Positions 1 through 17,770 of a DNA stretch of 64,000 bases are shown piece by piece. Position numbers and translations under genes: made by a program. The notes beneath the pieces are model-generated. The model did no database searches. It was given only the letters and a program-made list of their open reading frames with translations, and was not told where the DNA came from. This DNA comes from Phycisphaerae bacterium (GTDB lineage: Bacteria > Planctomycetota > Phycisphaerae > UBA1845 > Fen-1342). The DNA lies in assembly GCA_963675745.2 (NCBI GenBank), contig CAXXWX010000019.1:160001-224000 (forward strand), in the 5' to 3' direction. Each line of letters opens with the position of its first letter. Positions within the stretch are counted from its first letter, which is position 1.

Positions 1-2427
1 ATAGGCCACGTCGCTCAGGCTTTGCACCACCTTGGGATGGTTGCTTGGCAACGCTCGTTGGCGTATTTCCAGCGCCGCCTGGTACTTGGGCAGCGCCTCC
101 TCCGACCGGTCCAGGGACACCAGGCAGTTGGCGAAGCACGTTAGTAGTTGTGCCGTGCCGGGGTGGCTGTCCGGGTACAGACGTTGGAACATCTCTACTG
201 CGGCTTCGAACTTGGGCAGGGCCTCCGCCGACCGTCCAAGAGAATGCAGGCAACTTGCCAGGTTCACCAGACTCTCGGCCACGTCCCCGTTGTCGCCTTC
301 AAAGAGCCGCTGGTTCATCGCCAGAGCCGCTTCATTCATGGGTAGCGCCTCGGCTGAGCGGCCAAGCTGCTGGAGGCAAACGCCCACGTAGTTCAGGCTC
401 CTGGCTATTTCGGAGTGATCCCCCTCGTAGAGCCGGCGATTGATCTCCAAGGCTGCCTCAAGGTTGGGCAAGGCCTCGGCAGGCCGGCCCAAGTGTTGCA
501 GGGAGCCGGCCACCGACATCAGAGCGTGTGCCACGGATCGGTGGTCGCCGTTATAGTCGCGCTGAAATATCTCGAGCGCCTTTCTCTGTTTCGGTAGCGC
601 CTCCGCTGGTCGGCCCAAGTAGCTCAGACAATCAGCCGCAAGCAACATGCCCCACGCGACACCGGGACTATCTCCCTGGTCGAGCCGCTTGCGCATCTCC
701 AGCGCCGCTTCATACGTGGCCAACGACTTCGCGTAGCGGCCAAGACGAGTCAGACACCGCCCTACCTCCATCATGGCTCGCGCGACGGTGGGGTGATCGC
801 CATCGTGAAGCTGCTGACTGATTTTCAGTGCCCGCTCGGCGACCCGGAGTGCCTCCTCGTCGCGGGCATTGCCAGAGAGAATCAGCGAGATGGTCAACCG
901 CAAAGCGACCTCGGTCTCTGGCTGGTCCTTCAATTGGCCGGCGTCGAGCAATTCAACGGCCTGGTTCATCGCATCCGCAACTAAGAAACCTCCATGGCCA
1001 CCATAGTAGGGGTTGCACGTGACGAGGGCCTCCGTTACGAACTTGTTGATCGTTTCGGCCTTCTTGCGTTCGCTCTCCGCCGCCGACGTTGCCGCTTCGG
1101 CCAGTTCGCGTTGCTTCTGTTCCGAAAGCAGGGCTGCCTCGGCCCGCTCGCGCTCATGAACGGCCTGCCGCCAGTAAATGGTTGAGATCACGAGCGCCGC
1201 CAGAACCACCACCAGGAACGATGCCGCCACGGCGACCGCCACGCGGTAGCGCTGCAGGTTCTTGCGCAACACATACCATCCACTGTCCCGCTTCGCCTCG
1301 ATTGGCTCGCCGGCGAGGTAGTGCCGCACATCGCGTCCGAGCTCGCCCGCCGACTGGTAACGCCGCTCGGGTGCCTTACTCAGGCACTTGAGCACGATCG
1401 TCTCAACCTCGTCGTTGATCTGCCGACGGATCGTGCTCGGCCGTGCCGGTTCGGCCTGCAAAATGTTGTCGAGCACATCACGCATGTTGCCGGCCACCTC
1501 GTACGGGAAGCGCCCGGTCAACATCTGGTAGAGAATCACTCCCAGCGAGTAAACGTCCGTGCGGATGTCAATGTTCCCCGGCACGCCCTCGGCCTGCTCC
1601 GGGCTGGCCCACGGCAGGCTGCCCACGAACTGGCCGGTTAGCGTCATCAGCGACGCGCCCGTCTCACTGCCCGAGCGTGCCAGGCCGAAGTCCAGAACGT
1701 GCGGCTGACCGTTCGCGTCGACTCGGATGTTGCCGGGCTTGAGGTCGCGGTGGATCACGCCGCGCAGGTGGGCCGCGTTGACGGCTTCACAGATCTTACC
1801 GAACAGCTCAAGCGTCTCGTCGATGCTCGGCTTGTTGCGCTCGATGTGTTCATCCAGCGCCCGTCCCGAGACGTAGTCCATGACGAAGTAATGGCTGCCG
1901 GCGGCCTCGCCGCTGTCGTGCACCGTGACGATGTTTGGATGCTTGAGCTGGCCGAGGATGGTAACCTCGCGATCGAAGCGGGCCCGGTCGGCAGCGCCCC
2001 CAAAGGGCCCCTCCTTCATGACCTTGATGGCCACCTTGCGTCTGGTGGACTGCTGGATGGCTTGGTAGACCACGCCCTGCCCCCCGCGGTGCAGTTCGCG
2101 GATGATTGTGTAACCGGCGATCGAGCCGGGATGGGTGGGGAGTGTAGCGGACGTGTCGCCGTGACCCTCCGTGGTGTCCTCGGGTGACAGCGTCTGCGTC
2201 ACGTCGTCGTTGGCCGCGGCGCGCTGGCGAGCCTGCTCGACAAGCCGCAGTGCGGCGAGTTGCTGGCCGAGTTCCGGCATCAGTTCGGGATGTGCAGCGG
2301 CGATCTCCTCATCCAGCACTAGCTCGCCTTCAGACCGCCGTCGCGCAACGTCCGCGACGACCTCGGTAACGCGCGCGCTTCGGCTGTCAGCACCTCCGTC
2401 TCGGACCGCTGAGTCTTCAGCAGTCAT
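1..2427 (-). CDS. Ser/Thr protein kinase with transmembrane helix and C-terminal 42-aa TPR repeats (copy 1; runs off left edge)
   Basis: Absent from the ORF track, apparently because no stop occurs in the window. Manual translation from ATG 2427 gives MTAEDSAVRDGGADSRSARVTEVVADVARRRSEGE..., the kinase motifs HRGGQGVVY, VAIKVMKEG, HRDLKPGN and DFGLA, and the repeat QRALPSNHPKVVQSLSDVAY at the edge. Spot-checked in frame. GGGGAG RBS. Clear paralog of 4042..6768. Confidence 0.93.
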   Translation of the reverse strand, partial: MTAEDSAVRDGGADSRSARVTEVVADVARRRSEGELVLDEEIAAAHPELMPELGQQLAALRLVEQARQRAAANDDVTQTLSPEDTTEGHGDTSATLPTHPGSIAGYTIIRELHRGGQGVVYQAIQQSTRRKVAIKVMKEGPFGGAADRARFDREVTILGQLKHPNIVTVHDSGEAAGSHYFVMDYVSGRALDEHIERNKPSIDETLELFGKICEAVNAAHLRGVIHRDLKPGNIRVDANGQPHVLDFGLARSGSETGASLMTLTGQFVGSLPWASPEQAEGVPGNIDIRTDVYSLGVILYQMLTGRFPYEVAGNMRDVLDNILQAEPARPSTIRRQINDEVETIVLKCLSKAPERRYQSAGELGRDVRHYLAGEPIEAKRDSGWYVLRKNLQRYRVAVAVAASFLVVVLAALVISTIYWRQAVHERERAEAALLSEQKQRELAEAATSAAESERKKAETINKFVTEALVTCNPYYGGHGGFLVADAMNQAVELLDAGQLKDQPETEVALRLTISLILSGNARDEEALRVAERALKISQQLHDGDHPTVARAMMEVGRCLTRLGRYAKSLATYEAALEMRKRLDQGDSPGVAWGMLLAADCLSYLGRPAEALPKQRKALEIFQRDYNGDHRSVAHALMSVAGSLQHLGRPAEALPNLEAALEINRRLYEGDHSEIARSLNYVGVCLQQLGRSAEALPMNEAALAMNQRLFEGDNGDVAESLVNLASCLHSLGRSAEALPKFEAAVEMFQRLYPDSHPGTAQLLTCFANCLVSLDRSEEALPKYQAALEIRQRALPSNHPKVVQSLSDVAY

Positions 2428-2467
2428 CCATCTACTCCCCGTTGCCTGCGCCGAAACAGCCAAGTTC

Positions 2468-2473
2468 AGTATA
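2468..2473 (-). promoter_or_regulatory. -10-like TATACT upstream of kinase copy 1
   Basis: CCATATACT is conserved at the equivalent position before both kinases (see 3995..4000), preceded by a TTTCC.CGGCCC block. Confidence 0.5.
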
Positions 2474-2550
2474 TGGCGAACACCAGGGCCGTGGAAAGCC
2501 GGCAGCGGGGGAGCTTACGCCGTGGGTGGTACGTGGCAGGTAATGAGCAA

Positions 2551-2577
2551 GGCGGGCGATTCGGTGAATCGCCCGCC
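2551..2577 (-). terminator. GC-rich stem-loop downstream of peptide gene 1 (terminator or RNA-stabilising hairpin)
   Basis: Perfect 12-bp stem GGCGGGCGATTC/GAATCGCCCGCC with a 3-nt loop. Only a weak U-tail. Conserved in copy 2. Confidence 0.6.
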
Positions 2578-2599
2578 CGCGGAGGCCTGGGGTTTTCGG

Positions 2600-2656
2600 T
2601 TAGAACCAGGGAAAAATGAACAAGAAATTGAGCCAGTAAAACGGATCGGGCCACAT
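2600..2656 (-). CDS. 18-aa aromatic-rich peptide MWPDPFYWLNFLFIFPWF (copy 1)
   Basis: AAGGAG RBS 6 nt before ATG, TAA stop. The paralog at 3809..3865 has the same length, 11/18 identity and five synonymous codon differences. Confidence 0.82.
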   Translation of the reverse strand: MWPDPFYWLNFLFIFPWF

Positions 2657-3049
2657 ATCAGACTCCTTTGCATGATCAGGTTTCGCGTGGCTCTCGGCGT
2701 CCACAGTCCCTCTAATGCGATCTGGGCGCCGCGCGCTCTCGCCGATTCGAAAAACCTCCAACTACCCGGCTCACCATCGTCACAACGTCGGCCGTGATGG
2801 AGGCGCATTGTCGCGTTTGACCGTGTCACCAGCAGAGCGACCACGCGATCCATGATCTTGGGACTCCCCCGCCGTCAGGATCTTCACCACACCCCGCTAC
2901 TTTCGCACCAGGCGGGGCTAATCCGATTCGTCTTGTGACGCGCGACCCGATTCAATGGCATGGCGCGTACGCTTCTGCCCCCACGAGCATTGAGGCGGGG
3001 CGGCCACGCCATGTGGGGGCGAAGATCGTGAGTTGAGGAGATTGGGGGC

Positions 3050-3700
3050 ATGTGTAGGGCTGATATATTGGCTGTGCTCGTGGGCTTGGTTCAGGTGTGC
3101 GTAAGCACAACGCTGTCGGACGTGTTCAACATGCCCGACAGCCTGACCAGCCTGGGCACCGTCACGGTGGGCAACCCAGGCAACGCGCCAGACACGCGCT
3201 ATGATCCGAACGGGTATGGTAGCGTGGACTACGTGTACAACATCGGCGAGCACGGGGTGACGGCCGTGCAGTACGCGGAGTTCCTCAACGCCGTGGCCGC
3301 AATGGACACTTACGGCCTGTACAACACGAACATGTTGTCGAGCAGTAGCCGCTGTAAGATCGAACGCAGCGGCTCGTCACCCAATTACACGTATAGCGTG
3401 GCCGGCGACTGGGCCGACCGGCCGGTGAACTACGTATCGTGGGGTGACGCGGCGCGGTTCGCCAACTGGCTACACAACGACCAACCGACCGGGGTGCAGG
3501 GACTGAGTACGACCGAGGACGGGGCGTACTTCCTGGACGGCGCGACGAGCAACGAAGAACTGCTCGCCGTGACGCGCGAGGTCGACTGGAACTGGGCGAT
3601 CACCAGTGAGGACGAGTGGTACATGGCTGCGTATCACCAGAACGACGGCGTGACGGGCAACCACTTCGACTATCCAACGAGCAGCGACAGCGTGCCGAGC
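3050..3700 (+). pseudogene. 3'-truncated SUMF1/formylglycine-generating-enzyme-like secreted protein
   Basis: Signal-like N-terminus, VTVGNPGNAPD, RPVNYVSWGDAARFANWLHN, SEDEWY.AAY. Family-like sequence ends at PTSSDSVPS (~3700), where the duplicated peptide-kinase module begins. The ORF tail to 3799 is non-coding module DNA. Confidence 0.8.
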
Positions 3701-3808
3701 AGCTGGAGGTTCTTTCGAGTCAAAGAGAGCGCGCCGTGCCCGGACTGCATTGATTGGAATGTGGACGCTGAGAGCCACGTGAGACCCCCTGAAACATAGG
3801 AGCCTGTT

Positions 3809-3865
3809 ATGTGGCCTGACCCGTGGTGGTTGTTCAACTTCTTCTCCATCTTCCCCTGGTGGTAA
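3809..3865 (+). CDS. 18-aa aromatic-rich peptide MWPDPWWLFNFFSIFPWW (copy 2)
   Basis: AGGAG RBS 6 nt before ATG, TAA stop. Paralog of 2600..2656. Confidence 0.82.
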   Translation: MWPDPWWLFNFFSIFPWW

Positions 3866-3886
3866 TGCAGACCTGAAGAACCGGCG

Positions 3887-3913
3887 GGCGGGCGATTCTA
3901 CGAATCGCCTGCC
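3887..3913 (+). terminator. GC-rich stem-loop downstream of peptide gene 2
   Basis: GGCGGGCGATTC-TAC-GAATCGCCTGCC (one G-U pair). The stem matches copy 1 while the loop differs. Confidence 0.6.
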
Positions 3914-3994
3914 TCGCGTGTTTCAGGCCTAATGTGTCGCCTACGTAGCCCACCCTCCCCCGATTCCACCTTTCCCCGGCCCGCGTGCTCACCA

Positions 3995-4000
3995 TATACT
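3995..4000 (+). promoter_or_regulatory. -10-like TATACT upstream of kinase copy 2
   Basis: Conserved with copy 1, about 40 nt before the ATG at 4042. Confidence 0.5.
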
Positions 4001-4041
4001 ACATTGGGCCAATTCAAGCGCAAGCCATGGGGAGCGTGTCG

Positions 4042-6768
4042 ATGGTTAGCGAGGACTCGGCATCAAAGGACGGCGATGCGGCCAGCCGCGAGGAGCGCAT
4101 CGTCCAGGTCATCGCGGATGTCGCGCGACGCCGGTCGGAAGGCGAGAAACTACCTGATGCACACATCACGGCGGAGCACGCGGACCTGATGCCCGAATTG
4201 GGTGAGCAGCTCGCCGCGTTGCACCGCGTCGAGCAGGGTCATCAGCGCGCCAAGATCAACGCCGACGTGACGCAAACGCGGCAGCCCGAGGACAGCGCAA
4301 ACATCGACACCCAGCCGGCCCTATCGCCGTTGAGTCAACCGGATTCAATCGCCGGCTACACGATTGTCCATGAGCTGCACCGCGGCGGACAGGGTGTTGT
4401 GTACCAGGCCATTCAGCAGTCCACCAAACGCAAAGTGGCCATCAAGGTCATGAAGGAGGGGCCGTTCGGCGATGCGGCCGAGCAAGCCCGTTTCCAGCGC
4501 GAGATCCAGATCCTCGGTCAGTTCCAGCACCCCAATATCGTGGCCATCCACGACAGCGGTATTGCCGCCGGCAGCCACTACTTTGTCATGGACTACATCC
4601 GCGGCGAGCCGCTCGATGCATACATGGCCTCGAGTAAGCGGTCGATCGACGACACGCTTCAGCTATTCGCAAAGATCTGCGACGCGGTCAACGCGGCGCA
4701 TCTGCGCGGCATCATTCACCGCGACCTGAAACCGGGCAATATCCGCATTGACACCGAGGGCGAGCCACACATTCTCGACTTCGGACTGGCGAAGGTCACC
4801 TCGGGTACGGACGCAACGCAGATGACCATGACCGGGATGTTCCTGGGGTCATTGCCGTGGGCCAGCCCGGAGCAGGCCGAGGGGGCGCCGGATCAGATCG
4901 ATGTGCGGACGGACGTGTATTCGCTGGGCGTGCTGCTGTATCAGATGCTGACGGGCAGATTCCCATACGAAGTCGTCGGGAACATGCGTGATGTGTTGGA
5001 CAACATCCTGAAGGCCACGCCAGCCAGGCCGAGCACCGTTCGCCGTCAAATCAATGATGAGGTCGAGACGATCGCCCTCAAGTGCCTGAGCAAGGAGAAG
5101 GAACGGCGTTATCAGTCTGCGGGCGAGTTGGCCCGCGACGTCCAGCGTTACCTGAAAGGCGAGCCGATCGAAGCCAAACGCGACAGTGGCTGGTACGTGC
5201 TCAAGAAGAGCCTGCGGCGGCATCGTGCCGCTGTTGCGGTAGCGGCGGCGTTTTTGCTCATACTTGGGGCCGGGTTGGCGACGTCACTCAGCCTGTGGCG
5301 GCAAGCAGTGCGCGAGCGGGATAGGGCGGTGGCGGCGGAGCAAAGCGAGGGCCGGCAGCGAAGGCGGGCCGAGGATGAGGCCCACAACGCGCGACTGGCC
5401 GAAGCCGAGCAACGCCGCCTGGCTCAGGCCGAACAGCGCGAGCGGAAGAAGGCGGAGGCAATCAACCGATTCGTGGGGAAGACGCTCGTGTCGTCAGATC
5501 CCCACCAAGGTGGCGAGTACGGGTTCCTGGTGGCAGATGCGATGGAACAGGCCATCGACCTGCTCGATGCCGGCGAGTTGCGCGACCAGCCGGAAATTGA
5601 AACCGCCCTGAGGCTGAAGATCGCCCAGATCCTCGCCGGCAATGCACGCTCGGAGTTGGCGCTGAGACTTGCCGAGCGCGCCCTGGAAACAGATCAGGCG
5701 CTCCATCCAGGTGATCATCCTGACGTGGCTGCGAGCCTGAGCGCGGTGGGTAACTGCTTGCGCTTGCGGGGTCAGTTGCAGGAGGCGCTGGTCAGGCTCC
5801 AGGCAGCGCTCGAGATGCGCCAACGGCTCTTCTCCGGCGACCATCGCGATGTCGCGGCGAGTCTGAACGACGTCGGTGGTTGCCTCGAAGCCCTGGGCTC
5901 ACCCGTATACGCGATTACCAAGTTCGAAGCCGCCCTGGGGATGTACCAACGACTTTACCCCGGCGACCACAGCAAGGTGGCGGCAGCACTGAGCAACACG
6001 GCCTCCTGCATGAAGTCCCTGGGACGACTCGATGAGGCGCTTACGATGTTTGAATCGGCGCTGGCTATGCGACAGCGACTGTTCGAAGGCGATCATCCTG
6101 ACATTGCGGCAAGCCTGAACAACTTGGGTGGATGCCTGGAGGCCCTAGGCCGGCCCTCTGATGCCCTGCCCATGTATGAGGCGGCGCTGGGAATGCGCCA
6201 GCGCTTGTTCCCAGGGGACCACCCCGGCGTGGCAACGAGTCTGAACAACGTGGCCGAGTGTCTGCAATACCTGGGTAGATACGAAGAGGCGCTACCCAAG
6301 CATGAAACGGCGCTGGAGATGTGGCAGCGGCTCTTTCCGGGCGATCACCCTGATGTGGCGGTGGGCCTGAACAATCTGGCCTCCGCCCTGCGTTCTATTG
6401 GTCGGCTGGAGGAGGCGCTGCCAAAGTACGAAGCGGCGCTGGAGATGAGGCGGCGTCTCTTCAAGGGTGATCATCCCGCCGTGGCGCGAAGCCTGAACAA
6501 CGTGGCCCGGTGTCTGGACAGCATGGGCCGCTCGGACGAGGCTTTGCCCAAGTTCGAGGCAGCGCTCGAGATGTACCAACGGCTCATCGCGGACGACCAT
6601 TCCGTCGTGGCGACGTGCCTGAACAACGTGGCTGCATGCTTGGACAACCTCCGGCGCCACGCCGAGGCAGTGCCGAAATACGAGGCGGCGCTGGAGATGT
6701 TCAAACGAGTTCTGCCGCCCGGCCAGCGCGTGCTGACGGTTGTTGCCGGTGCGATGATCCTCCAATGA
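4042..6768 (+). CDS. Ser/Thr protein kinase with TM helix and eight 42-aa TPR repeats (copy 2; natural C-terminus replaced by IS DNA)
   Basis: HRGGQGVVY, VAIK, HRDLKPGN, DFG, WASPEQ, DVYSLG. Hydrophobic segment AAVAVAAAFLLILGAGLATSLSLW. Eight (G/D)DH..V..SLNN-type repeats. Start set at 4042 from the GGGGAG RBS and alignment with the paralog. Confidence 0.95.
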   Translation: MVSEDSASKDGDAASREERIVQVIADVARRRSEGEKLPDAHITAEHADLMPELGEQLAALHRVEQGHQRAKINADVTQTRQPEDSANIDTQPALSPLSQPDSIAGYTIVHELHRGGQGVVYQAIQQSTKRKVAIKVMKEGPFGDAAEQARFQREIQILGQFQHPNIVAIHDSGIAAGSHYFVMDYIRGEPLDAYMASSKRSIDDTLQLFAKICDAVNAAHLRGIIHRDLKPGNIRIDTEGEPHILDFGLAKVTSGTDATQMTMTGMFLGSLPWASPEQAEGAPDQIDVRTDVYSLGVLLYQMLTGRFPYEVVGNMRDVLDNILKATPARPSTVRRQINDEVETIALKCLSKEKERRYQSAGELARDVQRYLKGEPIEAKRDSGWYVLKKSLRRHRAAVAVAAAFLLILGAGLATSLSLWRQAVRERDRAVAAEQSEGRQRRRAEDEAHNARLAEAEQRRLAQAEQRERKKAEAINRFVGKTLVSSDPHQGGEYGFLVADAMEQAIDLLDAGELRDQPEIETALRLKIAQILAGNARSELALRLAERALETDQALHPGDHPDVAASLSAVGNCLRLRGQLQEALVRLQAALEMRQRLFSGDHRDVAASLNDVGGCLEALGSPVYAITKFEAALGMYQRLYPGDHSKVAAALSNTASCMKSLGRLDEALTMFESALAMRQRLFEGDHPDIAASLNNLGGCLEALGRPSDALPMYEAALGMRQRLFPGDHPGVATSLNNVAECLQYLGRYEEALPKHETALEMWQRLFPGDHPDVAVGLNNLASALRSIGRLEEALPKYEAALEMRRRLFKGDHPAVARSLNNVARCLDSMGRSDEALPKFEAALEMYQRLIADDHSVVATCLNNVAACLDNLRRHAEAVPKYEAALEMFKRVLPPGQRVLTVVAGAMILQ

Positions 6769-7024
6769 GTCCCCTGCCGCCGTAGTCAATCCCAAAGCGT
6801 CATCGAGTTCGCGATCGGCCAGCAATCCAGCATCGGATGTGATCCGCGAACCGTGAAACGCGAGCTTCAGGCCGCCGTCAAACCCGACTCGCAACGCCGC
6901 CTTGCGCCTTTCACCCATTGGGTTCTCCGCCGGTTTTGTGCTGCGATGCCGAAAAGCCCGTGATTTATAGCTCCAAATCTATGTCAAGTATAACACACTG
7001 TAGACATTATCTGGGAAATCCGGG
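6718..7024 (-). mobile_element. IS1380-family remnant (left end plus first ~67 codons of transposase, ATG 6918)
   Basis: MGERRKAALRVGFDGGLKLAFHGSRITSDAGLLADRELDDALGLT...RTGNNRQH matches the IS1380 (DDE_Tnp_1_4) N-terminus. AT-rich leader. Candidate terminal sequence CCCGGATTTCCCAGAT at 7024..7009. Confidence 0.85.
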
Positions 7025-10617: not shown

Positions 10618-11050
10618 ATGCGGCAGGCGATAGACATCGGCCTTGAGCGGTTGAGGGGGGCCTGGCAGCGCGTCAGGGGACGCCTGCCGGTTGTGCGCGC
10701 CGATTGGGAGGCGCGGGGCCGAGGTGCTCGCCGTCGCCCGGGGCGCACCGGCGAACGGTCATCGTCGGCGGGGGCGCGCTGTTGGCGGCGATCATTCTCG
10801 TCGTCATAGCGGCGACATGGACCGCGCGGGCGTTTCGGTCCGCCCGCCCCCTCGCCCGTGGTGACGCGCGAAGGGGGAGTGGCGCTATCTGGTGGTTTGT
10901 GATAAGTGCAAGCGGCGAACGTACTTCGCCCAGCACCCGGCAACCGTGCTTCCCGCGCGTGGACCGCTGCTCAAATGCGAGCAGTGCGGGCAGTTCAGCG
11001 CTGCATGGTATCGGCGTGGCAGCATGGCGGTGCCGCCCGGCGGGTGGTGA
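10618..11050 (+). CDS. Single-TM protein with C-terminal zinc ribbon (~142 aa; split by about 4 apparent frameshifts)
   Basis: Reconstructed across frames: [12 protein letters not shown]...[21 protein letters not shown]...[19 protein letters not shown]...[27 protein letters not shown]. Ends 17 nt before the prepilin gene. Confidence 0.65.
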
Positions 11051-11067
11051 ATCGTCCGGAGGAACTA

Positions 11068-12107
11068 ATGTCAGTGCGAATGGTTCGCCGTGGGTTCACG
11101 CTGATCGAGTTGCTGACGGTGGTTGCGATTATCGCACTGCTGGTCTCGATCCTGCTGCCGAGCATGTCGCGGGCGCGCGAGCAGGCCAAGCGCGTTTATT
11201 GTTCGTCGAATCTGCGGAGCATCGGCCAGGCCGCGCTGGCATATGCGAACGAGGACGAACACGAGCTGTTAATCCCCATTCATCAGTCGATGGTCACGTA
11301 CAAACCCAGCTCCGATTACTGGCTCTGGCGCACGGCGATGTGGGTTTTCGTTCGGCGGTCGCTCAGCACCAGAATCGTTCCTGACCAACCAGGGGCCGCG
11401 TGAGTTGGGACAGGACGAGCATTGGACAGCCCAGACGCGCCCGCTTAACCAGTTCATCTTCAAAACCGTTTACGAGGCGGACGCGCGCGAGCTGAAGCTC
11501 TATCGTTGCCCGTCCGATCGAGGCTACCCCGATCACCCTGACATCGATGATTCGCCGATCGAGAATGCGGGGCGGAGGTGTTACGACACGCTGGGGAGCA
11601 GCTACCGCGCGAGTCTTTACGGCATATTCCCCGGGCCGGCGACCGGGTATGACGGAGCCTTTGCGATCGGCCCCTGGGGGCACAGCCTGTCCTCCATCCC
11701 GCAGCCATCGATGGTAGCGGCGTTTGGCGAGCCGTCTTTTTTCAACATGATCGGTCAGGGACAACGGCACGGTGAATCCGGACCCGGTGATCGCGATCGG
11801 CTGGCACAAGCAGTGGATGGTGGACAACCTGGTATTCTGTGACGGGTCGTCCAAGCCGACGCGCGCGACGGGCCACGAGTCAATCATGGACGAAGTGGTC
11901 AACGCGCGCATGGAAGTCGGACGGAATTGGGATTTGATTTCGCGCGGTCCGGGTTGGCGTTTTGACCTGTGGCCGACGCCGGGAGCCCGGATCTGGGCGC
12001 ACGACCCCGAGAGTCAATTCTGGAACGCGCCGTATACGGATCAGCCGGATGAGCGTTGGCGCCATTGGCCGTTTGTCGGTGCTCAAGACAATCGGAGCGG
12101 CGTCTGA
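11068..12107 (+). CDS. Prepilin-type N-terminal cleavage/methylation (DUF1559-like) protein with two apparent frameshifts
   Basis: [51 protein letters not shown]...NLVFCDG. Deleting one G at 11342-44 and one at 11758-60 joins three ORF-track pieces. GGAGG RBS. Confidence 0.85.
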
Positions 12108-14053: not shown

Positions 14054-14554
14054 CTAGCCCTCGAGATTCAGCGCGGACACTCGCTCCCCCTCACCGCCGG
14101 ATGAGCGCGAGTCCCCGTTCCGGGAGCCGCTCGAAGATGACGACGGCCTTCCGTCCTCGGAGACCGTGGCCTCTTTGGCGATCTTCTTCACGATCAACGT
14201 CCACGTCTCGCGCTGGTGCTTCAGGATTCGGATGGCGTCGTCGAGCGCGTTGAGTTCTCGACGGATGTTGGCATCGACCAGCCGCATGTAGCAGTAGTTG
14301 TACAGCGCGGTCATCTGATCGGCGACCTCGGGGTTCACGTCGCGGTTCAGGCCGGCGGACAGTTGAAGGCATATCCGCTGGGCGCGATCGAGGCTGTTGA
14401 AACTCGCCTCATAGTCACCGTCCGCGAGGGCCTGGCGGCCCTTCAGCGCAAAACGGACCGCCCCGTCAAGCAGCATGACCTGCAACTGCGCGGGGCTCGC
14501 CGTCAGGACGGCGTTCCTGAGATACTCCTGCGATGCGTTGGCCGTTTGCTTCAT
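14054..14554 (-). CDS. fliS: Flagellar export chaperone FliS
   Basis: YLRNAVLTASPAQLQVMLLDGAVRF, LYNYCYMRLVDAN, RETW. Lies downstream of fliD. Confidence 0.92.
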   Translation of the reverse strand: MKQTANASQEYLRNAVLTASPAQLQVMLLDGAVRFALKGRQALADGDYEASFNSLDRAQRICLQLSAGLNRDVNPEVADQMTALYNYCYMRLVDANIRRELNALDDAIRILKHQRETWTLIVKKIAKEATVSEDGRPSSSSSGSRNGDSRSSGGEGERVSALNLEG

Positions 14555-14653
14555 GCGGTCATATCGGTCCAAGTGAGGTCGGCGTTCAATACCGCGCACG
14601 CGGGCCGACGGTCACCGTGTTTGCCGTCGGGGGTCGCGCGTGTTCGGTCACAG

Positions 14654-17600
14654 TTAGCTACTCGTGCTCGACGTGCGTGTCGTGAATGACGCCGCGATGC
14701 TGGCCAACTGGCTCAGTGCGGTTTGCTGTGACTGCATCGCGGCCAGGGCTTGCTCCATCGCAATGAACTGGTTCGTCAGCCGTTCACGTTTGCGATCCAG
14801 TAGTTCTGTGAGCGCGTCGGCTCGGTTCGTGAGCGACTCGGCCTGATCATCGAGGGCCTCGTCACGCCGATCGATCAGCCCGTCCGTGTCAGTGATGGCC
14901 TTGATGGCCTCTTCGAGGTCGGCGGCGCGTCCGATCTCGGAGTCGCTGAAGAAGCGTTCGACTCCGAGCGGGTCGGCCTCGTATGCCTCACGGAAGGCGG
15001 TTTCGTCGAACTCGAGCGTGCCGCCGTTGCCGAGCGTGATGCCGAGATCCGACAAGCGGGAGATGGAACCCGCGCTGCCGGTCGCGGTGCTTTGGATCAT
15101 GTCGTACAGTCGGTTGTCGATCGAGCGGGCGGTGCCGTCGCCGTGCAGTATTGCGGCCTGCTCCGTCTCGGTGTCGAACTCCATCAGCTCGCCGACGCGT
15201 TTGGTGGCGGCGTTGAAATCACTGACGAAACCACCCACCGCCGTCACGACGCGCTCGATGTCGGTGCCGACGGTAACGGTCACCGGCTCATCGCTGACGT
15301 TGCTGACGTTCAGGGTCATGCCGTCGACGACGTTTGAGAAGGTGTTGGTGCTGCTGGTCAGCAGCAATCCGCCATCGGCGCCGTCGCCGAGCAGAATGCT
15401 CGCGTCGCGCGCCTGGGTCAAGGCGGAGAATCCCAGGCCGGTCTGCCCGGCGTCAACGATCAGTTCCCCGGCCGCCCCGGTAACTGTCGATTTGATGCTA
15501 AGGCGATACGGCGCGATGCTGGTCCCATCATTGAACACACTGGCAGTTGCCGACGAGGCGTTATCGTTGATCTCGGCGGCGATTTCCTCGAGAGTTTCAT
15601 GGCCGCTGAGCTCCAGGTTGAATTCGAGCGAGCCGTCGATCTGTCCGTCATCGCTTTCACCGGCGATGTTGAGATTGCGCGCCACCAGGCCGTCTTCATC
15701 CTCAATGATCAGTGGCAGTTCTCCGCCGCTGGAATCGATGATGACAATCCCGTCGCCGGTGTCGTTGATGCGGGCCTGGATGGAGTCCGGCGTGGCCTTG
15801 TTTATTTCGGTGAGAACGTCCTGGATGGTCGTGATGGAGGAGCTGTAGAGACTCACCGTGGACGCGAAGCCGGTTCCCGAAGTGATCTTTATCTTACCCT
15901 GCCCGACGCCTTGCCCGGCGTTCAATTCGGACAGCAAGGTGCCCTCGGAAATGTACCGTCGCTGCAAGTTGACGCTCTGGATCGTGTCACCGGTCTGGGC
16001 GATGCCCATGGCGGTCGCAAAGCTGTCGTCGCCGACATCGCTGATAGTGATCGGCGAATCGTCGAGCATGTTCGAAAACTCGACACGCAGGCCGGTGGAG
16101 TCGTATCCGACGTCGATACCCAGCGTGTCCGCCTGGGCGTTGATCAGCTCAATGACATCGCGCAGCGTCTGGGCCTGCGTGGCATCGATGGTTGCGATCT
16201 GACCGTTGGCTTCAATCTGAAAGATGCCACCGACGAAACCCTGCCCGCCGTTGAGCGAGGAAAGCAGAACCGTGTTGATGCCGCCGGCCACGCGGCGTCC
16301 GGTGACGGTCTCCCCATGCGTATACGTGCCTTCCTGCAAACCAAGATCGGCCAGCGCGTGCGAGTATTCGCCGGCGATGAGGTCGAAGGTCGCGTGCGTG
16401 CCATCCGTGCCATCGATGAGTTCGATGTGCCGGCCGTCATCTGAAAGCTGTGCCTGGAAATACGGCACGTCGCTGTCCGCTGCGAAGTTGGATTCGGCGA
16501 AATTGATCGCCGCCAGCGCGTCGCCGAGCGTGTCCATGTGCAGAATGCCGTCACCGGTCAGCTTGTCGCTATCGGCGGTGCCGGCGATGCCGAGGTCACG
16601 CGCGGCGTGCGTGTCGCCGACGTCTTCAATGGAGAACTCGTAGCGCGAGGGATCATCTTCGTCGAGGGGTTCGGAGGCGTCGATGATGTTGATGTGGTTG
16701 TCGGACATGACGAAGGTGATGCGGTTGTCGCCCGTTTCGGACTCCCTGGTGGCGTCCTCGATGAGCGTTTTCACATCGCCGATTGTGCGGGCCCCGGACA
16801 GGTCGATCTCGGTTGAGAACCCGTCGCGCGTTGAGATGCGGATGGTGCCGAGGTCCACGCCGGTGCCGTGATTGAGGCGTTCAAGGCGTGTGCTGGACTT
16901 TACGAAGACGCTCATATCCACCGCGACCTCGATGGTATCGGCGCCGCCCTCGCCGCCGGCGCGGATGGTGAAGTCGCTTCCACCGCGTGAGCGCCCCAGT
17001 CCCAGCCCCCCGCTCAAGGCCTTCAGCGGCGAGTTTTCGGTAAGGTACGTCAGCTCGGTGCCGGCCAGTTGTCCGGTACCGAAGGTGGTCTCACCGAAGC
17101 CGAGGTCGGCGGCGGTCTGGCCGCCATCAACCTCGCGGATACGGATCTGGCCGCCGGTGTCCTCGGTCAACAGCAGGTGGTCGCCCTCGATGGCCGCCGT
17201 GATGTCGACGTCGGCGGCGTTGATGCTGTCGATGATGTCGTCAAGCGAGCGAGCGCCGCTCGTGCTGATCGTGGCCTGATTGCCGGCGGCATCGGTCAGG
17301 GTAAACGAGCCCGCCCGCACGCCCGCATAGCCGTTGAGCTCATCCAGGCTGGTTGTGAAGTTGGCCCGGGCGCTGGCTGACTCGATGGTCAACTGGCCGG
17401 CGGGGATGGGCGTGTGCAGACTGTTGAAGCCGCGGCTGACAAGCTGGTGGCTTGAGGCCAGTGAATTGACGCGAAATGTGTACGATCCGGGGGCCACGCC
17501 GTCGTTCGTGGAAACGGACAAGACGTCGGGCGCTGAGGAGGTGCTCGTCGTGCCCTGGAAAAAAGTGGAGTTCTTCAGCGACGAAATGCGCGAGAGCATG

Positions 17601-17770
17601 GCGCTGATACGCGCAGAAATCTCCGCAAAGGCCGTCTTTTGCGCGTTGATCAGGCCGACCCGCTCCAGCAGGCGGTCGCGGGGTTGCGCTTCAATCGACA
17701 TCAACTGGTCGACGAGCGTTCCGTAGTCAATGCCGGACATAAGCCCGACACCTGAGGTGATGCTGCCCAC
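14654..17770 (-). CDS. fliD: Flagellar filament cap protein FliD (long form, 1038 aa)
   Basis: GLMSGIDYGTLVDQLMSIE N-terminus, SSTNTFSNVVDGMTL, LSDLGIT..GTLEFDE and QFIAMEQALAAMQSQ C-terminus. Confidence 0.93.
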   Translation of the reverse strand: MGSITSGVGLMSGIDYGTLVDQLMSIEAQPRDRLLERVGLINAQKTAFAEISARISAMLSRISSLKNSTFFQGTTSTSSAPDVLSVSTNDGVAPGSYTFRVNSLASSHQLVSRGFNSLHTPIPAGQLTIESASARANFTTSLDELNGYAGVRAGSFTLTDAAGNQATISTSGARSLDDIIDSINAADVDITAAIEGDHLLLTEDTGGQIRIREVDGGQTAADLGFGETTFGTGQLAGTELTYLTENSPLKALSGGLGLGRSRGGSDFTIRAGGEGGADTIEVAVDMSVFVKSSTRLERLNHGTGVDLGTIRISTRDGFSTEIDLSGARTIGDVKTLIEDATRESETGDNRITFVMSDNHINIIDASEPLDEDDPSRYEFSIEDVGDTHAARDLGIAGTADSDKLTGDGILHMDTLGDALAAINFAESNFAADSDVPYFQAQLSDDGRHIELIDGTDGTHATFDLIAGEYSHALADLGLQEGTYTHGETVTGRRVAGGINTVLLSSLNGGQGFVGGIFQIEANGQIATIDATQAQTLRDVIELINAQADTLGIDVGYDSTGLRVEFSNMLDDSPITISDVGDDSFATAMGIAQTGDTIQSVNLQRRYISEGTLLSELNAGQGVGQGKIKITSGTGFASTVSLYSSSITTIQDVLTEINKATPDSIQARINDTGDGIVIIDSSGGELPLIIEDEDGLVARNLNIAGESDDGQIDGSLEFNLELSGHETLEEIAAEINDNASSATASVFNDGTSIAPYRLSIKSTVTGAAGELIVDAGQTGLGFSALTQARDASILLGDGADGGLLLTSSTNTFSNVVDGMTLNVSNVSDEPVTVTVGTDIERVVTAVGGFVSDFNAATKRVGELMEFDTETEQAAILHGDGTARSIDNRLYDMIQSTATGSAGSISRLSDLGITLGNGGTLEFDETAFREAYEADPLGVERFFSDSEIGRAADLEEAIKAITDTDGLIDRRDEALDDQAESLTNRADALTELLDRKRERLTNQFIAMEQALAAMQSQQTALSQLASIAASFTTRTSSTSS

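Follow-up and report, generated by a model that had tools for sequence, protein, structure and literature searches.

We analysed a 64,000-nucleotide stretch of DNA from a Phycisphaerae bacterium of the Planctomycetota (assembly GCA_963675745.2, contig CAXXWX010000019.1, positions 160,001 to 224,000), referred to below as the window. Two open reading frames (ORFs) of only 18 codons, here called A and B, lie in it on opposite strands, each in front of a gene for a Ser/Thr kinase bearing tetratricopeptide repeats (TPRs). The two copies consist of the following features, in window coordinates.

2600..2656, minus strand: small ORF A, 18 codons and a TAA stop, translation MWPDPFYWLNFLFIFPWF, with coding-type divergence from copy B
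3809..3865, plus strand: small ORF B, 18 codons and a TAA stop, translation MWPDPWWLFNFFSIFPWW
2663..2668, minus strand: Shine-Dalgarno (SD) sequence AAGGAG of ORF A, with the ATG 6 nt downstream
3797..3802, plus strand: SD sequence TAGGAG of ORF B, with the ATG 6 nt downstream
2657..2760, minus strand: conserved upstream block A, a candidate 5' untranslated region (UTR) or regulatory region of the small ORF, 74% identical to copy B against 46% outside, not coding in the ORF frame
3705..3808, plus strand: conserved upstream block B, 74% identical to copy A; a truncated FGE-like ORF reads into it
2551..2577, minus strand: 12-bp GC-rich hairpin after ORF A, fold z -4.6 against shuffles
3887..3913, plus strand: 12-bp GC-rich hairpin after ORF B, fold z -5.2 against shuffles
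2468..2497, minus strand: promoter-like TTTCCA-18-TATACT between hairpin and kinase A, with 9/12 consensus matches, the only site in a scan of 2300-4200
3971..4000, plus strand: promoter-like TTTCCC-18-TATACT between hairpin and kinase B, read from the sequence and below the scan threshold
1..2427, minus strand: kinase A, extending past the window edge to -806; 1077 amino acids (aa), with a Pkinase domain, one transmembrane (TM) segment and a TPR array
4042..6768, plus strand: kinase B, 908 aa, with a shorter C-terminus than A; Pkinase domain, one TM segment and a TPR array

The original prediction had placed the two ORFs at 2656..2600 (-) and 3809..3865 (+), each preceded by AGGAG at 6-nt spacing, closed by TAA and followed by a hairpin. 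We reproduced both translations, and all of these elements are borne out by the sequence. The AGGAG core occupies 2667-2663 on the minus strand for ORF A and 3798-3802 on the plus strand for ORF B, and SD, ATG and TAA stand at the same relative positions in both copies. The distance from stop codon to kinase ATG, given there as about 175 nt, measures 172 nt in copy A (ATG at 2427, -) and 176 nt in copy B (ATG at 4042, +). Copy B is limited to an 18-codon product by an in-frame TAG at 3797-3799, three codons ahead of the ATG. The start sites are credible, since the source genome has the anti-SD CCUCC, and 40.5% of 1805 long ORFs have an SD-like motif in front of them, compared with 7.1% for a control window.

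The two peptides are identical at 11 of their 18 residues and differ at the other 7. Five identical residues (P3, D4, N10, I14 and F15) are nevertheless encoded by different codons; on both counts the codon listing agrees with what had been claimed. Trp, Phe and Tyr take up 9 of the 18 codons in each copy (aromatic fraction 0.50); the number of aromatics is constant between A and B, and their positions move. The peptide carries a single charge (D4) and prolines at positions 3, 5 and 16. Its hydrophobic stretch comprises the 13 residues after Pro5, with Pro16 inside it and Trp/Phe at the flanks. Neither 18-residue translation contains an export signal, an N-terminal signal peptide or a pro-region.

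Both small ORFs lie within the two arms of a large inverted duplication detected by a repeat finder. The duplicated cassette, about 3 kb long, consists of the leader and the TPR kinase, and homology between the copies begins about 104 nt upstream of each small-ORF ATG. According to the repeat finder, the kinase bodies are 72-76% identical in DNA between the arms, the leader arms (2600-2752 and 3713-3865) 73%, the hairpin arms 88% and the promoter-like stretch 76%. Since both ORF-kinase pairs sit in the arms of one inverted duplication, they amount to one evolutionary event, and the linkage of ORF and kinase is inherited rather than recurrent. The observation that each ORF stands in front of a kinase is correct in that both adjacencies are present, but they go back to a single duplication and do not count as two independent cases.

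The downstream genes do encode TPR-bearing Ser/Thr kinases, as had been proposed: Pfam finds Pkinase (PF00069, E 4.4e-47 and 4.9e-46) and TPR_12 (PF13424, E 2.9e-59 and 1.5e-90) in the two proteins. They are 72% identical across their first 400 aa, and kinase B lacks about 150 C-terminal residues found in kinase A. Each has one hydropathy peak, at about residues 395-417, after the kinase domain and before the TPR repeats. With the Pkinase domain first, the TPRs after it and a single predicted span in between, both show the architecture of a Hanks-type kinase with C-terminal TPRs. Because the single hydrophobic segment follows the kinase domain, the TPR array is predicted to lie outside the cytoplasm. 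This agrees with PMC11032199, which describes Planctomycetota TPR Ser/Thr kinases with a cytoplasmic kinase, periplasmic repeats and expansion by lineage-specific duplication. Kinases A and B are ordinary members of this described group.

The kinases also provide a yardstick of divergence. Between A and B, the synonymous divergence dS is 1.2-1.4, and the proportions of synonymous and non-synonymous differences, pS and pN, are 0.60-0.64 and 0.20-0.25, respectively. Identity is 47% at four-fold sites, where saturation would leave 35%, and 48-52% at third codon positions. The synonymous sites of the kinases are thus near saturation, and the duplication is old.

Measured with this yardstick, the leader is divided into conserved islands and near-neutral valleys. 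Walking downstream, the identity between copies is 74% in the upstream block, 74% in the ORF, 50% in the spacer, 89% in the hairpin, 59% in the next stretch, 77% in the promoter-like block and 62% in the kinase 5' UTR; just outside the repeat it is 46%. The promoter-like block in particular stands out against its flanks of 59% and 62%. The islands are conserved above the neutral level, and we conclude from their alternation with the valleys and from the kinase yardstick that several leader elements are under constraint.

The hairpins begin 22-23 nt past the ORF stops and have perfect 12-bp stems, with one stem difference between the copies (G-C vs G-U) and different loops; the hairpin is unique to these two loci. 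In a consensus fold of the two leaders, a 5' stem-loop contains two pairs, 6:55 and 18:42, that are changed on both sides with pairing kept. The same fold has a small helix covering the SD. Coming from two sequences, both features are weak signals. Rfam gave only a sub-threshold P10 match (E 0.14). The kinase has its own SD, in a 5' UTR of roughly 33 nt; the -10 box and the kinase ATG are 40 nt apart.

The substitutions in the small ORF are of the coding type. Copies A and B show 15 differences in 57 nt, split 1/5/9 over codon positions 1/2/3; in the 31 codons immediately upstream, read in the same frame, the split is 11/8/7. The coding pattern is confined to the ORF in its own frame: other frames show none, and the antisense frame shows the reverse pattern. 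By the Nei-Gojobori method, pS is 0.65 and pN 0.23 (pN/pS 0.35, one-sided Fisher p 0.039), values close to those of the neighbouring kinases. GC content by codon position is.28/.33/.72 in ORF A and.22/.50/.94 in ORF B, an excess at the third position as expected of a coding frame in a 63% GC genome. We also simulated 15 random substitutions, uniformly placed in the 57 nt, in 200,000 trials per setting. The ORF remained intact in 10-12% of trials. An intact ORF with 5 or more synonymous codon changes came out in 0.02-0.11%, one with 9 or more aromatics in 0.03-0.13%, and one with both in a fraction of at most 3e-5. The divergence pattern of the small ORF exceeds chance and supports purifying selection on the encoded peptide, in line with the original prediction. 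Judged by these signatures, the ORF is probably a real, very short gene, and it is probably translated.

According to the opposite view, the leader would be a conserved non-coding regulatory region, acting as RNA or DNA, and the frame an accident in a T/G-rich stretch. Several facts suit such a view: at 74%, the non-coding upstream block equals the ORF in conservation; no homologue offers an independent test of the frame; four sequencing runs are listed for the locus, none of them RNA; and, as just seen, the ORF survives 15 random substitutions in a tenth or slightly more of the simulations. It does not account for the period-3 differences, which are specific to the ORF frame and lacking upstream, or for synonymous sites that are saturated next to non-synonymous sites held at the level of the kinases. 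GC3 far above GC1 and GC2, the kept positions of SD, ATG and TAA, and a joint simulation probability of at most 0.1% likewise speak for translation. We regard an untranslated leader as unlikely.

Searches for relatives of the small ORF relied on the MWP[DE]P...FPW frame or on detectable similarity, and very divergent relatives could escape them. In the source genome, a regular expression, an aromatic-window scan, and nhmmer and blastn with the leader revealed no further copy beyond the two. The strict motif matched in 0 of 60 relatives and nowhere in the species-representative genomes, where a looser motif gave 19 matches, all by chance; among metagenome contigs, the strict motif matched once, also by chance, in a frame with in-frame stops. 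DNA BLAST of 30 relatives found no homologue, nor did a 5.8-billion-protein database searched at near and longer lengths, and NCBIfam had no match to the peptide. When the 53-aa open frame of copy A was compared with 278 other genomes of the order, the best E was 0.003 per genome and nothing rose above chance, the top-scoring rows lying for the most part in the Arg-rich N-terminal portion. Run on 71 further genomes of the family, a covariance model of the segment from SD to hairpin hit nothing but an ordinary U-tract terminator in genome G007.

Kinase loci were inspected separately. For the relatives, these comprised the best kinase match of each of 29 genomes and 20 further kinase starts, 49 loci in total. 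They contain 199 SD-preceded ORFs of 10-45 aa, none of them peptide-like: the top aromatic fraction is 0.20, vs 0.50 in ORFs A and B. About 50 kinase paralogs in the source genome have no such small ORF upstream either. The expectation that similar small ORFs would precede other homologous kinases was therefore not borne out, whether at the paralogs, at the loci of relatives, in the 278 genomes of the order, in the 71 of the family, or in the motif scans of species-representative genomes and metagenomes; the original prediction had itself named such an absence as a refutation. As far as these searches reach, the small ORF is not a family; it is a lineage-specific orphan belonging to one duplicated cassette in one genome.

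A further lead concerns the leader. For sequencing runs X1 and X2, which come from one sample, a contig record suggests a third leader variant in the region of 2577-2884. It is 89% like copy A over 2680-2884, continues with 32 nt that have at least 80% identity to the 3' end of ORF B, and then enters the copy-A hairpin region. Hints of this variant occur in sequencing runs from two samples, S1 and S3, of a single study, and nothing else pointed to a further homologue. We treat it as a lead, not as evidence; it may stem from a further paralog or a related strain.

The closest foreign relative of the two kinases is found in genome G024 (locus L004). In a quick kinase-domain tree, A, B and the G024 kinase form a trio with SH-aLRT support of 93, the pairing of A and B alone receiving 23. 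The feature in front of the G024 kinase is the following.

Locus L004 (genome G024) 722-1339, plus strand: gene for an extracytoplasmic function (ECF)-type sigma factor (Sigma70_r2, r4_2), ending about 45 nt before the kinase

Many kinase paralogs of the source genome have, by eye, a sigma-like ORF upstream as well. The arrangement at the G024 kinase, which groups with A and B, is that of the ECF sigma factor and Ser/Thr kinase pairs; kinases A and B differ in having no sigma gene upstream and the small-ORF leader in its place.

Part of the upstream block shows likeness between copies in another frame. At 3714-3782 (+) and 2683-2751 (-), one base off the ORF frame, 15 of 22 residues, counted by hand, are identical (FES.RAR.A..AL.G.WT.RAT). 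We considered the block as a relic of the 3' end of an ECF sigma factor gene, given a likeness to the C-terminus that is by eye only; Pfam yields no match at E up to 10, and the idea is unproven.

The original prediction went on to interpret the locus as a peptide-receptor kinase signalling system, in which each peptide would be the cognate TPR ligand or a specific modulator of its own kinase, with a constant frame and variable specificity positions. ORF and kinase have indeed kept their adjacency and stayed intact in each copy since the duplication, at a dS >1, and the 7 of 18 differing peptide residues accompany kinases that diverged too. This interpretation is not supported by what we found. 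Upstream of the roughly 50 paralogs and the 49 loci of relatives, the ORF does not recur, and the third member of the kinase trio, in G024, has the sigma factor gene instead; the adjacency itself derives from one duplication event. Moreover, the TPR array lies beyond the TM segment and is predicted to be periplasmic (PMC11032199), whereas the peptide has no signal peptide, no pro-region and no other export signal. The constant number of aromatics at shifting positions suggests that aromatic composition is selected, as in a membrane-interface or leader peptide, rather than a binding register.

In RRNPP systems the receptors are regulators located in the cytoplasm, and their peptides are secreted as pro-peptides before being taken up again. 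The present locus resembles these systems in that a TPR-containing protein is encoded beside a small peptide gene. Here, however, the TPRs belong to a membrane kinase and lie beyond its TM segment, no RRNPP-type domain is listed and the 18-mer has neither signal nor pro-region, so that membership fails on both receptor type and peptide architecture. The arrangement is one duplicated cassette from one genome and gives no support to a general peptide-kinase signalling system, and we judge it improbable that the peptides are TPR ligands or specific modulators of their kinases.

A third explanation keeps translation and discards the product. The Trp/Phe-rich upstream ORF would be a cis-acting leader peptide, its translation controlling the hairpin through attenuation or stalling and thereby setting kinase expression. 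Classical aromatic leader peptides of attenuators are exemplified by trpL and pheL, and the likeness is evident: fewer than 20 codons rich in Trp and Phe (9 of 18 aromatic here), a strong and stable hairpin 22-23 nt past the stop, and a position upstream of another gene. The kept number of aromatic codons with shifting positions would fit, and a hairpin with no U-tract may regulate rather than simply terminate. The differences weigh more in our assessment. Both copies have a conserved promoter-like element between hairpin and kinase, the folds contain no conserved alternative pairing and no evident antiterminator, and the hairpin has no U-tract of a terminator. The downstream gene is a kinase and not an aromatic amino-acid gene, and the conserved 100-nt block upstream of the ORF would be superfluous in such a model. 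Membership among attenuators appears to fail on the terminator and on the promoter-like element, a candidate promoter, between leader and kinase. We therefore consider a cis-acting leader peptide somewhat less likely than either alternative discussed above.

The locus could also be a type I toxin-like module, that is, a tiny hydrophobic toxic peptide with a structured and masked mRNA, unrelated to the kinase and merely carried along by the duplication. Toxins of 18-19 residues exist, such as the type I toxins of the Ibs/Sib systems of E. coli, and the resemblance extends to a very small, hydrophobic and lineage-restricted peptide in more than one copy, to structured flanks with a possible helix occluding SD and start, and to the strong 3' hairpin. 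In contrast to Ibs, the present peptide is aromatic rather than aliphatic and contains prolines, and toxicity would be putative. The scan identified no antisense RNA gene or promoter. The 13-residue hydrophobic stretch with its Pro appears to lack the usual helical TM segment and polar tail, and the long-range pairings have no clear covariation support in two sequences. A toxin is very improbable in our view.

Aromatic-rich short peptides do form the cores of some modified peptides, but a ribosomally synthesized and post-translationally modified peptide (RiPP)-like precursor or secreted signal peptide is scarcely credible here, with no modifying enzyme, protease or exporter among 11 flanking ORFs (Pfam) and with 18 residues too few for a leader plus core.

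We now propose a tentative model, which we regard as the best explanation overall: a lineage-specific micro-gene, duplicated together with a kinase, would be translated into a membrane-acting peptide. One such micro-gene would have been copied with its neighbouring TPR Ser/Thr kinase by an old inverted segmental duplication. Each copy opens with a conserved stretch of some 100 nt, probably a structured 5' UTR, which is followed by the SD, the 18 codons and a highly stable hairpin, and after these by the conserved promoter-like element and the kinase gene. These would form two transcription units, the micro-gene ending with its own 3' hairpin and the kinase being transcribed from its own promoter; we infer this division from the promoter-like site between hairpin and kinase in both copies and from the strong, locus-unique hairpin. 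The half-aromatic product would most likely partition into the cytoplasmic membrane or its interface and act in trans. That the product is a trans-acting small membrane peptide is, on its composition, a real but provisional possibility. A dedicated partner, if there is one, would most plausibly be the TM or juxtamembrane region of the single-pass kinase that was duplicated with the ORF, rather than the groove of the TPRs; that this membrane segment of the kinase is the target of the peptide seems unlikely.

Several points weigh against this model. A stretch of 13 hydrophobic residues with a Pro is short for membrane insertion and too short for a classical TM helix. The tie between peptide and kinase is adjacency alone, inherited from one duplication, and at the G024 kinase the upstream position is taken by an ECF-type sigma factor gene, with no small ORF. 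The hairpin has no U-tract, and a terminator scan gave 0 terminator-like sites; a canonical U-tract terminator does occur in G007, a genome of the same family. Two transcription units are for that reason a matter of interpretation. In the promoter scan of 2300-4200, no promoter was recognised for the small ORF itself. The selection statistics come from only two sequences in one genome and from 15 substitutions in an ORF picked post hoc, and the null of the simulation spreads substitutions uniformly over the ORF. As no homologue was found, conservation across species is not demonstrable.

The surroundings of the ORFs and kinases are rearranged and rich in repeats. One further gene reaches into the leader of copy B.

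3050..3799, plus strand: FGE-sulfatase-like gene, truncated at the duplication junction at about 3705; Pfam matches profile positions 11-138/255 only

This truncated FGE-like ORF runs into the conserved upstream block of copy B, in frame with ORF B but for the TAG. Ten FGE-like paralogs in the genome (340-394 aa) align with it to residue ~218 only and then diverge, continuing with the remaining domain and with PEP-CTERM-like or dockerin-like tails. Because the paralog alignment ends at the junction, the continuity of frame is a by-product of the junction and not the sign of a longer protein. We accordingly rejected the small ORF as a C-terminal tail of the FGE-like protein: the paralogs stop aligning at ~218, exactly at the repeat junction, the 31 upstream codons have no coding pattern and the search for longer proteins came back empty.

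At the other end of the cassette, a DDE transposase fragment (6727-6918, -) adjoins the 3' end of kinase B; it matches PF13701 at positions 6-57/435, below the curated cut-off. A third kinase copy lies at a contig edge (C15:1-1600, locus L077) and is 96% identical to window positions 5127-6725. Its frame appears split (ORFs 2..907 and 690..1808), possibly through pseudogenization or an assembly break, and its 5' end and leader are not assembled. More pairs of kinase paralogs appear as identical or near-identical tblastn matches to kinase B, namely C24:4821-5960 with C26:43897-45036 and C15:61588-62661 with C27:7375-8448. Such paired paralogs on separate contigs fit an ongoing duplication of kinase cassettes in the source genome.

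The 11 flanking ORFs searched with Pfam include 9 within about 11 kb downstream of kinase B and 2 within about 8 kb beyond kinase A. Their matches are a metallophosphoesterase, a DUF1559-type protein, an oxidoreductase, FliS, FliD, the transposase fragment and a TIG-domain protein; four ORFs are unmatched. The regions 10906-11403 (+) and 14054-17770 (-) hold FliS/FliD and a protein in which an N-terminal methylation motif goes with a weak match to DUF1559 (under the Pfam cut-off), a combination common in Planctomycetota; all are unrelated to the small ORFs.

To our knowledge, no small protein has been described that regulates a Ser/Thr receptor kinase in bacteria. The original prediction had recognised no described system with the layout seen here, and the abstracts covered by our literature search gave none either: they mention no small-protein or peptide partner of a Hanks-type kinase. 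For histidine kinases, control by small membrane proteins is known, and the nearest comparison is MgrB, a membrane protein of 47 residues and an inhibitor of PhoQ (PMC8404706). The likeness to MgrB-PhoQ is that a short hydrophobic product would act, within the membrane, on a sensor kinase that spans it. The present case differs in that the product would be 18 residues long and lack a full TM helix, the kinase belongs to the Hanks-type Ser/Thr kinases, and the ORF is an orphan found in one genome.

The small ORF is too short to pass the cut-off of any gene caller, and no relatives of it were found. The case shows that an old duplicate from the same genome can supply the comparison where other genomes provide no counterpart. 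The value of the ORF pair is that of a candidate for small-protein discovery, not of a new signalling paradigm. If translated, it would be one of the shortest bacterial genes in which the mark of purifying selection can be measured. A bolder extension, quite doubtful at present, would have the 18-residue half-aromatic micro-protein be a dedicated membrane-level partner of a Hanks-type receptor kinase, the two pairs having diverged into cognate pairs; if that were true, the peptide would be among the shortest functional bacterial proteins.

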